From: an uncultured Planctomycetales bacterium
GTDB taxonomy: Bacteria; Omnitrophota; Gorgyraeia; Zapsychrales; Zapsychraceae
Direction: 5' to 3'
Length of the DNA: 64,000 nucleotides
Assembly: GCA_964535935.1 (NCBI GenBank)
Contig: CAZHWM010000020.1
Location: 1,210 to 65,209, forward strand
The notes under the pieces were generated by a model. The model saw only the letters and a list, made by a program, of their open reading frames with translations, had not been told where the DNA came from and ran no database searches. This document shows, piece by piece, positions 11,818-63,584 of this stretch; within the stretch, counting starts at the first letter, position 1; every line of letters starts with the position of its first letter. Made by a program: the position numbers and the translations under genes.

Positions 11818-11858
11818 ATAATATAAAATAGGGGGTAAAGTAAAACTTTACCCCCTAT
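11818..11858 (-). terminator. rho-independent terminator after the membrane-anchored hsp20
   Basis: ATAGGGGGTAAAGT-TTT-ACTTTACCCCCTAT forms a perfect 14-bp stem, followed on the minus strand by a T-rich run. Confidence 0.6.
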
Positions 11859-11895
11859 TAGTTAATTATAACGATTTTAATTACTATATTAAATA

Positions 11896-12645
11896 TTAAT
11901 TTACATTAATTTTAACAGTATCATCCTTTTTCTGACTAATCCCCTGTTTTCGTGCTACTTTTATAGTCAACACTCCCTTTTTATAGTCAGCTTTAATAGA
12001 ATTCAAGTCTGCATCATCTGGCAAAGGAATAGAACGGGCAAAATATCCAAACCTCCTTTCCCGTTTAAAGAAATGATTGCCTTTATTCTCATCAAGTTCA
12101 TTCCTCTGTCCTGAGACAACTAGCATATGCCCCTTTGTTTCTACATTAATATTTTGTTTATCCATGCCGGGGATATCCATTTTTATTATATAACTGTCTT
12201 TAGTAGCTTTTACATCTGTATCCAAATCAAATGGGTTCTTTCTACTAAACCATCCAAAACCATTATACGCCCTTACACGGCCAAAGGCATCTCTGAACAT
12301 ACGATTCATCTGTCTCTGTATACGAACAAGTTCATCTAAGGGATCTGCGCTAACACTTCCGCCAAAACTATCCCAATAATCAGGCTCATTAAATTTAATC
12401 GGCGGAGTGGAAATAACTATGCTCCCTTGAGGCCGTATGTTATTGGACTGAACAGATAATGCCGCTATCTTTTTCTTTAAACTTCCTATCTGCCAGCTAA
12501 AAAAACAAACCACAACTAAAAAAAGGACTATTAGTCCTATAATAATCTTTTTACTATTTTCATCTATAGCAGCAGAACCAGCTTGCGACTGCAATTCATT
12601 TTTATTGTCTGACTGCTCAACATTGGTTTTATTTTCTGTGCCCAT
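11896..12645 (-). CDS. membrane-anchored Hsp20/alpha-crystallin family protein
   Basis: 249 aa. It has a polar N-terminus, one hydrophobic helix (IIIGLIVLFLVVVCFFSWQIG), then an ACD (DSYIIKMDIPGMDKQNINVETKGHMLVVSGQR ... FGYFARSIPLPDDADLNSIKADYKKGVLTIKV). A GAGGAGGGAG RBS precedes the start. Confidence 0.85.
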   Translation of the reverse strand: MGTENKTNVEQSDNKNELQSQAGSAAIDENSKKIIIGLIVLFLVVVCFFSWQIGSLKKKIAALSVQSNNIRPQGSIVISTPPIKFNEPDYWDSFGGSVSADPLDELVRIQRQMNRMFRDAFGRVRAYNGFGWFSRKNPFDLDTDVKATKDSYIIKMDIPGMDKQNINVETKGHMLVVSGQRNELDENKGNHFFKRERRFGYFARSIPLPDDADLNSIKADYKKGVLTIKVARKQGISQKKDDTVKINVN

Positions 12646-12724: not shown

Positions 12725-12973
12725 TTAAAACAAATCAAACAACTCACTTCTAAATCCATCATAACGTTTTCTAAAACGCCTTAATGCAACTGCAGAACTA
12801 ATAAATACCAAACCGATTACCACAAATATTGAAGCAATCATAGCAACCAACAACTGCGGCACCAAAACAATCAGTACTCCAAATAATATAAACAAAATTC
12901 CCTGTAATAGTTGATGCTTCCATGTCATAGAAAAACCATCAAAAAACACATCAAATACATCTATCTTCTGCAT
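12725..12973 (-). CDS. small two-helix membrane protein (DUF308/HdeD-like repeat)
   Basis: 82 aa. WKHQLLQGILFILFGVLIVLVPQ... followed by a second helix. An AGGGAG RBS precedes the start. Confidence 0.5.
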   Translation of the reverse strand: MQKIDVFDVFFDGFSMTWKHQLLQGILFILFGVLIVLVPQLLVAMIASIFVVIGLVFISSAVALRRFRKRYDGFRSELFDLF

Positions 12974-13044: not shown

Positions 13045-13425
13045 TTACGTAGAAATTTCAACCTTCTGAGGCTGTGCTTCTTTAGCTTTAGCAAGAGTAA
13101 TTTTTAATACACCATTCTGATAGTTTGCAGAAATATTCTCCTTGTCTACATCTGTATTTAGCTCAAAAATACGCCTATACTCTAAATCAGCGTATCTTTC
13201 CTGATAAACAGAAGTATATTCTTCCTCAATCTTATCTTTCTTCCTAACTCCTTTCACTATCAACTGATCTCCACACAATTCTACACTTAATGCATCTTTT
13301 TGTACCCCTGGCATATCCATCTCTATTACCACCGCATTTTCTGTCTCTGTTATATCAACAGGCGGCTGAACTACCAGCCTTTCCCCATCTTCTCTATTAC
13401 GTTTAATAAGCCTGTTAAGCCTCAT
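13045..13425 (-). CDS. Hsp20/alpha-crystallin small heat-shock protein
   Basis: ACD motifs AVVIEMDMPGVQKDALSVELCGDQLIVKG and NGVLKITLAKA. The start is set at the ATG 8 nt after GGAGGAGG; the track's GTG start at 13434 sits within the RBS. Confidence 0.9.
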   Translation of the reverse strand: MRLNRLIKRNREDGERLVVQPPVDITETENAVVIEMDMPGVQKDALSVELCGDQLIVKGVRKKDKIEEEYTSVYQERYADLEYRRIFELNTDVDKENISANYQNGVLKITLAKAKEAQPQKVEIST

Positions 13426-13495: not shown

Positions 13496-13972
13496 TTAAT
13501 TAACATCAATCTTAATCTGTTTAGGTTTTGCTTCTTCTTTCTTAGGCAAAGTTAATTCTAAAACCCCATCTTTAAATACAGCTTTAACTTTAGAACCATC
13601 CACCTCACTTGGAAGACTTATACTACGGTGGAAACTACCATAAAACCTTTCTGAACGGATATAATCTTCTTCTTTTACTTCTCTCTCTTGTTTTTTCTCG
13701 CCCTTTATGGTAAGGATATTATCCTGAATCAATACCTCTATATCGTCCTTTTTTAGCCCAGGCAGATCTGCTTTTACTACAACATTATCTTTAGAATCAT
13801 AAATATCAATAGCAGGTGCCCACTGTCCGCCTAAAAGAGTAGTATCGGTTTCCCCAAGTCTTGGAAACGTCAAATCAAATAACCTATTCATTTCTCTTTG
13901 AAGATTCTCTAACTCCTGAAAAGGAGATATTACATTCCAATCTTTTGTCCTTTTAGTAGGAACATTTGCCAT
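13496..13972 (-). CDS. Hsp20/alpha-crystallin small heat-shock protein
   Basis: SPFQELENLQREMNRLFD N-terminal motif. ACD motifs NVVVKADLPGLKKDDIEVLIQDNILTIKGEK ... ERFYGSFHRSISLPSEVD ... DGVLELTLPK. The start is set at the ATG after GGAGGAGG; the track's GTG is at 13981. Confidence 0.9.
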   Translation of the reverse strand: MANVPTKRTKDWNVISPFQELENLQREMNRLFDLTFPRLGETDTTLLGGQWAPAIDIYDSKDNVVVKADLPGLKKDDIEVLIQDNILTIKGEKKQEREVKEEDYIRSERFYGSFHRSISLPSEVDGSKVKAVFKDGVLELTLPKKEEAKPKQIKIDVN

Positions 13973-14141
13973 AATTATCACCTCCTCCTTCTTTATTTAT
14001 ACTCTTCTAATAATTATAATTACAAATAAATACATATAAACAAAATCAATTTTCACTACCATACTTCACTTCGAAATAAATCATTTTTATCTCATTTTAC
14101 CACCCCCCTTCTTTAACCAACCTTTATTTTTCATCAAATAA

Positions 14142-14168
14142 TTAGCACTCGATAGGCATGACTGCTAA
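14142..14168. promoter_or_regulatory. CIRCE-like inverted repeat (HrcA-operator-type)
   Basis: TTAGCACTC-GATAGGCAT-GACTGCTAA matches 17 of 18 arm positions of the CIRCE consensus TTAGCACTC-N9-GAGTGCTAA. It lies between the hspR-like stop codon and the first hsp20. Confidence 0.6.
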
Positions 14169-14189
14169 TATTTAAGTAAAAAAAATTTT

Positions 14190-14477
14190 CTATTCTCCCT
14201 CCATCTCCAATATCACCTTCAGCCCGTTAATACATACTCTCTTTTTATTCAAATAATACCAACAACGCTGAATCTTGCTTAGTTCTCGTTTAGAATAATA
14301 TCGTGTATCCCCCTTCCTCTGTCTCTTAGGACTAACAATACCTTTTTCATCTAATTGCTTTAATACCCATACTGGAATATCTAAAATCCTACATATTACA
14401 CCTGTTGTAAACACAGGTTCATCAGGATCGATATATACCTCTTCATAATTATCCTTTGATTTTGCCCCCCCCTTCAT
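14190..14477 (-). CDS. MerR-family HTH regulator, HspR-like
   Basis: 95 aa. FTTGVICRILDIPVWVLKQLDEKGIVSPKRQRKGDTRYYSKRELSKIQ...INGLKVILEME follows the MerR/HspR HTH-wing pattern. It sits at the head of the sHSP locus. Confidence 0.8.
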   Translation of the reverse strand: MKGGAKSKDNYEEVYIDPDEPVFTTGVICRILDIPVWVLKQLDEKGIVSPKRQRKGDTRYYSKRELSKIQRCWYYLNKKRVCINGLKVILEMEGE

Positions 14478-14504: not shown

Positions 14505-14533
14505 AGTCTATCACATATCAAACAATTTGTCAA
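14505..14533 (-). promoter_or_regulatory. candidate sigma70-type promoter of the hspR-like gene
   Basis: The minus strand reads TTGACA, 17-nt spacer, TAGACT, ending about 27 nt before the ATG at 14477. Confidence 0.5.
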
Positions 14534-14591
14534 TACTTATCAAAAAAAATTTTTCGATTATCGAACAAAATCTCATCTATTTTCTAACTTA

Positions 14592-14656
14592 TTTCACAAA
14601 TCAACCTTGTTAAATAGTGAAAAATGCACAAATCAACAAGGTTAAATAGTGCAGAA
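14592..14656. repeat. two tandem copies (B1, B2) of the 33-bp structured repeat
   Basis: B1 is TTCACAAATCAAC-CTT-GTTAAATAGTGAAAAAT. B2 is TGCACAAATCAAC-AAG-GTTAAATAGTGCAGAAT. Both have the same flank orientation but opposite central trinucleotides. Confidence 0.75.
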
Positions 14657-14693: not shown

Positions 14694-14879
14694 TCAAGAA
14701 ACTATATGATACTTGCGTAATAACCACATCATTGGGCACCAATTAGTAAATGCAGATTGGAGCAAATTTACCCCCACAAATCCTGTAAACCATAGCCATC
14801 TTATATCTATTTTTATAGCTAAAATAAGGCTTAAAAGTATAAAAAAGCCTGCAATACCTCTAAGTATTCGTTCTAACAT
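14694..14879 (-). CDS. DUF2892 (YgaP-like) small membrane protein
   Basis: 61 aa. ERILRGIAGFFILLSLILA...FTGFVGVNLLQSAFTNWCPMMWLL matches the two-helix, conserved-CP pattern of the family. Confidence 0.7.
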   Translation of the reverse strand: MLERILRGIAGFFILLSLILAIKIDIRWLWFTGFVGVNLLQSAFTNWCPMMWLLRKYHIVS

Positions 14880-50355: not shown

Positions 50356-51654
50356 CTATTTTTTCTTAGGTATCGTTATAATCAGCTCATCACCTTGAGT
50401 GGTTGTTGTCAATTTATCTGTATCCGCATCTTCTGGCAGAGATACAGATTTCAAAAATGAACCATAGGTATGCGAACGCACTGATGAATTTTTCGTAGTC
50501 TCTTCTGTCTGCTCAGAATATTCTCCTGATATGGACAATGAATGCTGATGTATTTCTATATCTATCTTATTCTTATTAAGACCCTTTGTATTAATCTTCA
50601 TCTCATATTTATCACCCAAATCCTTTAATTCAAAATCAGTATCATAAAACAAATCAGTATCAAACATCCCTGGCATACCTCCTTTAGAAGTTATACCAGA
50701 AAAACTATCTTCAAATATTCTACGCATACTCTCACGCATACGTTCCATCTCAGCAAACGGATCCCACCGTCTTCCCACAGAAGAGAAGGAAGGAGACAAA
50801 CTCTGAGATTTCATACTACTCGTATTATTAGAAGAAATATTACGTTTCACAGAGACACTTTTATTTCTTCTATACTCGTCCAATGCCTTTTTAACCTTCT
50901 CTATGGGTATAGCAAAACCTATACTCTGAGAATTCTGAACCACTGCCACATTAATACCAACCAACTCCCCATTCAAATTAAGCAATGCACCGCCACTATT
51001 ACCAGGATTAATCGGTGCATCTATTTGCAAAAGGCCATCAAATACGATCCTACCATTACTAGCCTCTATCTTTCTATCCTTCCCACTTATAACTCCCACA
51101 GTAACCGAATTTTCAAGCCCTAAAGGATTTCCTATCGCCACAACTGTCTCTCCTATCATAACATCTCCTGGCTTGCCCAATTTAGCTGCATGCAAGGGCT
51201 CAGGGGGAGTTATTTTTACAATTGCAATATCATCTTTAGGGTCTTCATACATCACCTTCCCCTCTACTGACTTACCATCCCTTAATATGACCACCACATT
51301 ACTAGCCATATTCACAACATGTGCATTAGTTACTATAATCCCATTCGTATCTAAAATTACACCTGACCCCACACTATGTAACTTCAATGCCCGCCTTGGA
51401 GTATAATAACCAAAGAATTTTTCAAAAAGCATATCGAATTCACTGCCATAACGTCCCCAAAATGGATTCTCACTAAGATAAATCAACCGCTCAGTACTTA
51501 TATTCACAACTGCAGAGGCATTTTCCCTTACTACCTTCACCACTGGTGTTTCTCTAGGATTATCCTTAGAGGCAAAAGCAGATCTCACGCATACACAAAT
51601 AACCGCTATCGACATAAAAACAATAGACCTTCTATAGGACGACCATCTCCTCAT
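50356..51654 (-). CDS. HtrA/DegP-type serine protease fused to a C-terminal Hsp20 alpha-crystallin domain (no PDZ evident)
   Basis: Signal-peptide-like N-terminus. The S1C triad contexts are TNAHV (His112), DDIAIV (Asp141/142) and GNSGGAL (Ser220). A Ser/Asn-rich linker is followed by [18 protein letters not shown] ... [29 protein letters not shown] ... [15 protein letters not shown] ... ELIITIPKK. Confidence 0.85.
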
Positions 51655-63519: not shown

Positions 63520-63584
63520 AACTCTTATAGTTTATCTCTTTAATTAAAAATCCTCAAGGATAATACCCAAAATTTCAAAACAAG

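Follow-up and report, generated by a model that had tools for sequence, protein, structure and literature searches.

A predicted HrcA operator without a promoter of its own, joined to a conserved T-run behind an HspR-like regulator gene in Omnitrophota

[quoted passage not shown] How, then, is a CIRCE to be read that has no recognisable promoter of its own and lies directly past the stop codon of a gene for another, HspR-like regulator? The question is raised by a 64-kb stretch of contig CAZHWM010000020.1 from an uncultured bacterium of the phylum Omnitrophota (the window), in which such an element occupies 14142..14168 between the gene of a small MerR-family protein and a set of hsp20 genes, which encode small heat-shock proteins (sHSPs). 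The best explanation of the whole, which we consider reasonably probable from the sequence comparisons described below, is that the element is an HrcA operator set in a serial module inside a regulator–hsp20 transcription unit, where bound HrcA would act as a roadblock to elongating RNA polymerase.

On the plus strand the element, itself unstranded, reads TTAGCACTC GATAGGCAT GACTGCTAA and departs from TTAGCACTC-N9-GAGTGCTAA by a single mismatch, 17 of the 18 arm positions matching the consensus with a spacer of exactly 9 nt; on the minus strand, which carries all genes of the locus, it reads TTAGCAGTC-ATGCCTATC-GAGTGCTAA. The initial annotation had described this match and our rescan agrees, finding it to be the sole match in 64 kb at three or fewer mismatches (0.01 expected from shuffles). 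The order on the minus strand is a ygaP-like gene, a 95-amino-acid (aa) MerR_1 gene, CIRCE, hsp20 gene 1, hsp20 gene 2, an 82-aa gene and hsp20 gene 3. The regulator gene (14190..14477) ends in TAG (14192..14190), exactly 21 nt (14189..14169) from CIRCE, and the most likely start of hsp20 gene 1, ATG 13972, lies 169 nt past it. Both distances had been given correctly before (21 and about 170 nt), while the two tandem hsp20 genes described then are in fact three, the third (12645..11896) with a membrane segment, and are accompanied by the gene of the 82-aa membrane protein. The nearest promoter, the regulator's own, lies about 340 nt upstream of CIRCE. Within the 21-nt gap, directly past the regulator stop, is an A4T8 tract (14178..14189, minus strand; −21 to −10, counted from CIRCE's first base).

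Which protein reads this CIRCE was addressed by comparison with relatives. A scan of species-representative genomes with the regulator gave 43 loci; the window's own species was not represented, the best match being 63% identical. In 27 of the 43 a CIRCE (at most four mismatches) starts 33–68 nt past the end of the regulator protein match, which places it some tens of nucleotides past the stop codon, and the other CIRCEs in these 27 loci stand solely in front of hrcA. Together with the window these loci make up a set of 28 unbiased sequences, in which the arm columns of CIRCE carry 1–2 bits and the spacer columns 0.03–0.29 bits; conservation is thus confined to the arms, the spacer sequence varying freely. 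Position 3 of the arms pairs as AT in 6, GC in 8, AC in 7 and GT in 7 sequences, and GG/CC mismatches occur at position 7. The half-sites thus vary independently, which points to recognition of DNA half-sites by a dimer rather than to selection for an RNA hairpin. The gene past CIRCE is usually hsp20, often followed by more hsp20, clpB, dnaJ or groES-groEL, and in one locus (L035) groES comes directly after CIRCE. ClpB and GroES of the relatives score above the curated NCBIfam cut-offs, as does HrcA in L023 and L036 (230.7 and 226.9 bits versus 197.2). The contigs of these two loci carry an hrcA-grpE-dnaK operon about 6.5 kb further downstream, its hrcA preceded by a classical promoter with CIRCE 1–4 nt past the −10.

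A second scan, of metagenomes with the pattern T-run-N10-CIRCE, returned 119 loci, in some of which gene orientation was called from raw open reading frames (ORFs) only. A MerR-like ORF precedes CIRCE in 41 of them, ending 17–28 nt upstream in 39 and 72–80 nt upstream in two. These 41 are mostly from Candidatus Omnitrophota, and their targets are hsp20, clpB, groESL or hrcA-grpE-dnaK. An hrcA-like ORF, identified with phmmer, is present on the same contig in 18 of the 41, usually with grpE and dnaK, and lies directly past the module or past hsp20 and/or clpB; with L023 and L036 this makes 20 loci that have hrcA on the contig. Sixteen of the hrcA genes in these metagenome loci share a promoter of TTGACA, 16–17 nt, TGTTAAAAT, about 6 nt and then a second CIRCE. 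Further CIRCEs, for which the initial annotation had proposed a search, occur in relatives before both groESL and hrcA-grpE-dnaK. This lineage, then, also uses HrcA and CIRCE in the ordinary way. The conservation of the arms is best explained by binding of HrcA, and 14142..14168 is very probably an HrcA site and not a site of the MerR-like protein. The metagenome hits classed as 'other', which include unrelated phyla, were set aside as carrying no information on conservation; their T-run is a promoter spacer, a real terminator tail (L066) or an A-rich ribosome-binding region in the opposite orientation.

The adjoining regulator is a winged helix-turn-helix with a short C-terminal helix and no effector domain. 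It had been described as MerR/HspR-like, of which the first half stands, with a Pfam MerR_1 score of 27.8 bits (cut-off 21.6). The second half has to be weakened: against the NCBIfam HspR equivalog NF047375 the protein reaches 39.7 bits where the cut-off is 105, and its resemblance to HspR is only a loose one. At least 123 homologues with 48–91% identity were found, and those with a source name are from Candidatus Omnitrophica/Omnitrophota; conservation across the aligned homologues is good, 12 columns being invariant. An AlphaFold2 model (predicted local distance difference test, pLDDT, 85) has GlnR/TnrA, TipAN, NmlR and CbpM as its closest folds in Foldseek. In nearly all loci the gene is linked to hsp20, clpB, dnaK or groESL, and operator-like boxes overlap its own promoter.

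This promoter, P_merR (14505..14545, minus strand; 10/12 plus TG in the promoter scan), is a strong, near-consensus one of the sigma-70 type, in which 17 nt separate the −35 TTGACA (14533..14528) from an extended −10, TGaTAGACT (14513..14505). It carries degenerate TTTCGAAA-type boxes within the spacer (14522..14515) and immediately before the −35 (14545..14536). About 20 nt upstream of the −35 is a perfect palindrome, TTCGA-TTA-TCGAA (TTCGATTATCGAA, 14553..14565, unstranded), the sole match in the window and a candidate high-affinity operator of the regulator. An exact TTCGA-N3-TCGAA is found at the same upstream place in 19 of the 43 genome loci, with two exact matches elsewhere in those loci, and most other regulator loci have variants with one or two mismatches. 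When about 20 promoters of relatives were aligned on their −35, the palindrome fell at about −64 to −50, a clean TTTCGAAA box abutted the −35, a second lay in the spacer and the −10 read TGnTATATT. Searches of groESL promoters and of the rest of the window gave no further TTCGA boxes. The regulator most likely represses its own promoter through TTCGA-N3-TCGAA and the flanking TTTCGAAA boxes; that it would be a repressor is suggested by the way the boxes cover a consensus promoter. This motif is neither CIRCE nor the HspR-associated inverted repeat (HAIR, CTTGAGT-N7-ACTCAAG). A clade labelled Melainabacteria/Caenarcanales lacks CIRCE (L003, L004, L011, L012, L017, L019-L021, L024, L039 and L045) and retains the regulator with the palindrome or a near variant, which argues that the regulator functions without CIRCE. 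In all of these loci except L024 hsp20 adjoins the regulator, and in several the gap between the two genes is 13–35 nt, short enough to indicate that they are co-transcribed there. A third arrangement is seen in L030, L032 and L034, where the regulator gene comes directly after clpB and neither CIRCE nor a T-run follows it.

These observations also bear on the two readings that the initial annotation had left side by side. In one, the sHSP genes are under an HrcA whose gene lies elsewhere, and the target of the HspR-like protein is a different one; the occurrence of CIRCE in 27 of the 43 loci, of hrcA in relatives and of a separate regulator palindrome all favour it. The other, in which the MerR-type protein has been recruited to a CIRCE-like site with HrcA irrelevant, now appears very improbable. 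It could draw on the regulator gene adjoining CIRCE in 68 loci, on the lack of hrcA in the window and on the lack of HAIR at the locus; the earlier failure to find a HAIR there was borne out by a search of the whole window, where matches are fewer than expected by chance and the best, at 63538, has three mismatches. However, the regulator has its own, unrelated and conserved palindrome in its promoter, one clade keeps the regulator, its TTCGA motif and hsp20 without CIRCE, HrcA is encoded within clusters of this kind, where hrcA promoters that stand apart from the regulator gene have a CIRCE too, and the 17-of-18 match is to the universal HrcA consensus.

If HrcA binds here, what would it block? 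Two features of the site are unusual, the first being the tract in front of it. AAATTTTTTT occupies −19 to −10 in 28 of 28 unbiased sequences, in a fixed register and with GC-rich genomes included; T is invariant at −12, −11 and −10 (28/28) and A is present at −19 to −17 in 23–25 of the 28. The first A's of the tract usually come from the stop codon of the regulator, so that the module consists of regulator stop, AAATTTTTTT, 9 nt and CIRCE. None of the 16 regulator loci without CIRCE has the T-run, and neither has any of 19 CIRCEs that belong to hrcA promoters, the majority of them in such regulator clusters. The second feature is the lack of a promoter at the module. A sigma-70 promoter overlapping or preceding CIRCE is found at the CIRCEs of hrcA and groESL but not here: at the module CIRCE none of 69 sequences has a −35 match better than 4/6, and −10 likeness equals the shuffle null, as against stand-alone groESL promoters with a 6/6 −35 in 29 of 29 and a 6/6 −10 in 27 of 29.

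Several other readings of the module were tried and rejected. A sigma-54 promoter, suggested by TGGCAC within TTGGCACTC, would place its −12 TTGC in the variable spacer, where it is not conserved, and taking the left arm of CIRCE or TTGnCn of the T-run as a −35 puts the implied −10 in the variable spacer or in CCAR. An intrinsic terminator of the regulator gene would need a hairpin upstream of the T-run, where none exists, the U-tract here preceding the hairpin; for a terminator on the opposite strand the A-run would come after the hairpin. Anti-Shine–Dalgarno pairing is inconsistent across loci.

The same tract recurs in a second setting. About 30 stand-alone groESL promoters carry it in the same register, as A-run, TC, TTGACA, 2 nt, AAATTTTTTT, 4 nt, TATAA|T, the last T of TATAAT being the first base of CIRCE (L046, L049, L059, L081, L086, L098, L110-L112, L119, L120, L122, L125, L127, L129, L147, L152, L154-L156, L159, L163 and others). 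GroEL of these loci is about 73–82% identical to Omnitrophota GroEL versus 60–68% to that of Escherichia coli. The gene upstream of these T-run-bearing promoters is co-directional in 26 of 26 cases and ends 17–61 nt before CIRCE in 24; judged by eye from its C-terminal sequence it is often CoaX-like, and it ends inside or just before the promoter.

In these promoters A3T7 is thus the spacer between TTGACA and a TATAAT that overlaps CIRCE, and the module could be a promoter remnant. Promoter occlusion would then apply here too, with a weak internal promoter lacking a −35, made of the T-run and an A/T-rich −10-like stretch, driving hsp20 and being blocked by HrcA. T-rich tracts can replace the −35 in Campylobacter and Helicobacter, and the 8–9 nt before CIRCE are A/T-rich in AT-rich genomes (for example, TAAAAT or TATAAA). 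We nevertheless regard this as unlikely, although it is the strongest of the rivals. Besides the poor −35 and −10 scores, GC-rich L026, L033, L036 and L037 keep the T-run without any −10-like sequence, canonical TTGACA is found at the other promoters of these loci, and at least six loci have, about 50–340 nt past the module and in place of an ORF, a complete hrcA promoter that carries a CIRCE itself.

The fixed register of tract and CIRCE in two promoter contexts could alternatively reflect a cooperative operator, in which A3T7 is a low-affinity site of the MerR-like protein or an extended, bent-DNA contact of HrcA, and stabilizes HrcA on CIRCE. In Campylobacter jejuni there is a direct interaction between HspR and HrcA, whose binding to the promoters that they co-regulate is cooperative, and HspR has several sites, some of high and some of low affinity (PMC7464140). 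The TTTCGAAA boxes of the present regulator, with a T-rich left and an A-rich right half, loosely resemble AAATTTTTTT. The tract lacks, however, the CG core present in every TTCGA box, the hrcA promoters of the same clusters presumably bind HrcA without a T-run, and the tract-bearing stand-alone groESL promoters have no TTCGA boxes nearby; with these points in view a cooperative role seems rather unlikely, slightly more so than occlusion.

At the RNA level, U-run and CIRCE hairpin might together form a site where an RNase cuts and so separates the regulator mRNA from that of the chaperones, an mRNA stabilizer or a fourU-like thermometer. AAAUUU fits a single-stranded A/U site of the RNase E type, and for about 10 of 26 loci the predicted ensembles pair the U-run with the A-rich Shine–Dalgarno region where the CIRCE hairpin has its base. 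The dnaK operon of Bacillus subtilis is reportedly processed after hrcA, and CIRCE is reported to affect mRNA stability (Homuth, 1999; Yuan and Wong, 1995). Such a role is nonetheless improbable. The distance from CIRCE to the next Shine–Dalgarno sequence ranges from 6 to 50 nt across loci, the pairing is missing in many of them, including the window, compensatory changes in the arms are lacking while AC and GG mismatches are frequent, and Rfam gives no thermometer match of the ROSE, fourU or hsp17 type. Moreover, none of these models requires a fixed 9-nt register to CIRCE.

The arrangement of promoter, tract and operator is that expected of a transcriptional roadblock. P_merR (14533..14505) lies upstream of CIRCE (14168..14142), with no terminator between them and no promoter at CIRCE, and along the minus strand from the regulator gene to hsp20 gene 3 no terminator-like site was found except a weak one inside gene 3. 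From this layout we infer that the regulator and hsp20 genes are co-transcribed, in a unit that would start at P_merR, run through the regulator, CIRCE and the three hsp20 genes and end at the terminator at 11859..11827. HrcA, encoded elsewhere in the genome on this account, would when bound at CIRCE halt polymerase arriving from P_merR. The RNA:DNA hybrid of the stalled polymerase would then lie over the U-tract (rU:dA), favouring release of the transcript, and a ribosome could still finish the regulator because its stop codon would already have been transcribed at the stall. The result would be an AND gate: expression of hsp20, clpB and whatever lies behind them would require that neither repressor is active, with the regulator still expressible. 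Blocking of elongating polymerase is the simplest reading that accommodates every class of site. We put the roadblock step itself at slightly less than an even chance.

The literature is in line with this scheme. Repressors bound within transcription units block elongation, release of the roadblocked polymerase being rate limiting (half-life ∼11 s) and Mfd-dependent, and strong promoters push through such roadblocks (PMC10310618, PMC4132739). Polymerase blocked before a stop codon traps ribosomes (PMC13584721); a stop codon just before the tract would avoid such trapped complexes.

More tentatively still, A3T7-N9-CIRCE may be viewed as a conditional terminator operated by a repressor, in which HrcA takes the place of the hairpin, the rU:dA hybrid is weak, release occurs just past the stop codon and heat opens the gate by inactivating HrcA. 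Omnitrophota would use this device in two ways: to let a regulator and chaperone genes share one promoter yet differ in expression, and, more generally, to shield chaperone operons under HrcA control against read-through where genomes are compact. On the roadblock reading, a T-run is required only if CIRCE is met by transcription outside HrcA control, whether that comes from P_merR or out of a housekeeping gene that precedes groESL, and would be dispensable at hrcA promoters behind an already gated region. This rule agrees with every scorable case, though it was formulated post hoc.

Several points weigh against the roadblock and the terminator built on it. We know of no demonstrated elongation roadblock by HrcA. 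The position of the stall in the T-run would follow from a figure of Pavco and Steege (1990), according to whom polymerase stopped by a site-specific protein reportedly has its 3′ end about 11–17 nt before the obstacle. A local promoter downstream of CIRCE may exist in the 169-nt leader, where the promoter scan gave a 10/12 match at 14040..14013; such matches are at chance level, with seven sites in the region versus 9.4 expected. Searches with phmmer agree with the initial annotation that hrcA is missing from the window, as are dnaK and groEL, in what is only 64 kb of the genome. As the spacer between −35 and −10 of groESL promoters the tract lies outside what those promoters transcribe, and it might there serve HrcA binding, DNA bending or a promoter role instead. 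The metagenome loci were chosen for their T-run and are in this respect a biased sample of groESL promoters. Finally, a lineage comprising L084, L092, L115 and L138 fits no model: GATTTTTTTT-GCAAACTnT-CIRCE stands before groES with a conserved spacer, nCCnnCGTA, and no recognisable upstream promoter, and the orientation of the upstream gene is uncertain.

How does this module compare with known systems? The class I genes of B. subtilis (groESL and hrcA-grpE-dnaK-dnaJ) share with it the inverted repeat, the 9-nt spacer and chaperone targets, and the hrcA gene of the relatives similarly heads a grpE-dnaK(-dnaJ) operon behind TTGACA-17-TGnTAAAAT with CIRCE a few nucleotides downstream. Unlike in class I, the CIRCE of the window is promoter-less, directly follows the stop codon of another gene and is tied to the invariant A3T7, and hsp20 and clpB, not groESL or dnaK, come first among its targets. 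In Helicobacter pylori and C. jejuni, HspR and HrcA repress the same chaperone operons (PMC6032397, PMC6102357, PMC7464140). The likeness would lie in the pairing of a MerR-family repressor with HrcA, in a MerR type, autoregulated there and probably here, with several sites of differing quality and in a compact CIRCE. There, however, a single promoter region holds the two operators and HspR reads HAIR, whereas here the sites are serial, first in the promoter and then intergenic, the motif is TTCGA-N3-TCGAA with TTTCGAAA boxes and the protein falls below the HspR equivalog cut-off. The sHSP gene hsp1 of Lactobacillus plantarum, which has cis-elements for CtsR and HrcA (PMC3842655), is a precedent for CIRCE before an sHSP gene and for control by two repressors; it differs in that the partner is CtsR and both elements are in the promoter region.

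The roadblocks formed by CodY, CcpA, PurR, GalR and LacI likewise have an operator that lies downstream of the promoter and lacks one of its own, with a stalled and released polymerase expected (PMC10310618, PMC4132739). Release in these cases is mainly via Mfd. To our knowledge, none of them has a dedicated U-tract at the stall position. As regards the regulator, GlnR needs a partner protein for DNA binding, as HspR needs DnaK. The closest solved relatives are GlnR and TnrA (PDB 4r4e, 7tea, 7tec; profile E = 9e-8, fold template modelling (TM) score 0.65–0.84), which are also short, effector-less winged-helix MerR proteins but differ in their operator (TGTNA-N7-TNACA) and nitrogen regulon and are only about 20–24% identical. 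What is new is the serial layout, the promoter-less CIRCE joined to A3T7 and a stop codon, and the TTCGA-type motif of the regulator.

A literature search found no papers on how Omnitrophota regulate their heat-shock response. For this phylum, which is known almost wholly from metagenomes, the present analysis defines an uncharacterised HspR-like family with its probable operator and gives a first picture of heat-shock control. If that picture is true, the sHSP and ClpB disaggregation genes would be on only when two chaperone-sensing repressors are both off. HrcA would then also act on elongating polymerase, and the module, at about 50 bp a compact one, would be a natural terminator made of protein plus U-tract, of which examples come mainly from roadblock studies in vitro.

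The remaining features of the unit lie downstream of CIRCE on the minus strand. The leader (13973..14141), which besides the promoter-like match holds a decayed small ORF (Shine–Dalgarno sequence 14108..14100, then ATG-AGA-TAA 14095..14087), matches no known RNA family in Rfam. In 10 relatives (L007, L009, L010, L013, L015, L016, L018, L022, L038 and L040) an intact small ORF occupies the interval between CIRCE and hsp20, with its own Shine–Dalgarno sequence directly past CIRCE, and encodes about 23–28 basic amphipathic residues, such as MKLLERFIVTITDLRDFIRKRFKTK. The gene calls for hsp20 genes 1 (13496..13972, 158 aa) and 2 (13045..13425, 126 aa) match Pfam HSP20 with E = 1.7e-27 and 2.4e-19. 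They are followed by the gene of the 82-aa membrane protein (12725..12973), which is kept inside such clusters in L007, L013, L016 and L071 as well, and by hsp20 gene 3 (11896..12645, 249 aa), which has an N-terminal membrane segment and matches HSP20 over residues 144–247 (E = 3.4e-24). The 82-aa protein has two helices and a weak match to DUF7670, and its position next to the hsp20 paralogue with the membrane segment suggests a membrane-associated sHSP pair. The intrinsic terminator that would end the unit (11827..11859) has a 15-bp stem followed by a T-rich tail.

Upstream, between the YgaP-like membrane protein gene (14879..14694, minus strand), which is the first in the gene order, and the regulator promoter, two 25-nt direct repeats with a period of 32 lie at 14595-14651 on the minus strand; their inverted cores, CCTTG/CAAGG, form a 9-bp inverted repeat (AACCTTGTT/AACAAGGTT) that may be a terminator or another operator. 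Elsewhere in the window (50356-51654, minus strand) is the gene of a 432-aa trypsin/HtrA-like protease, with neither CIRCE nor a TTCGA box upstream and preceded by a small NifU-like ORF. The protease carries a C-terminal Hsp20/alpha-crystallin-like domain that matches the Hsp20 proteins of the window in phmmer with E = 1e-13 to 1e-18.

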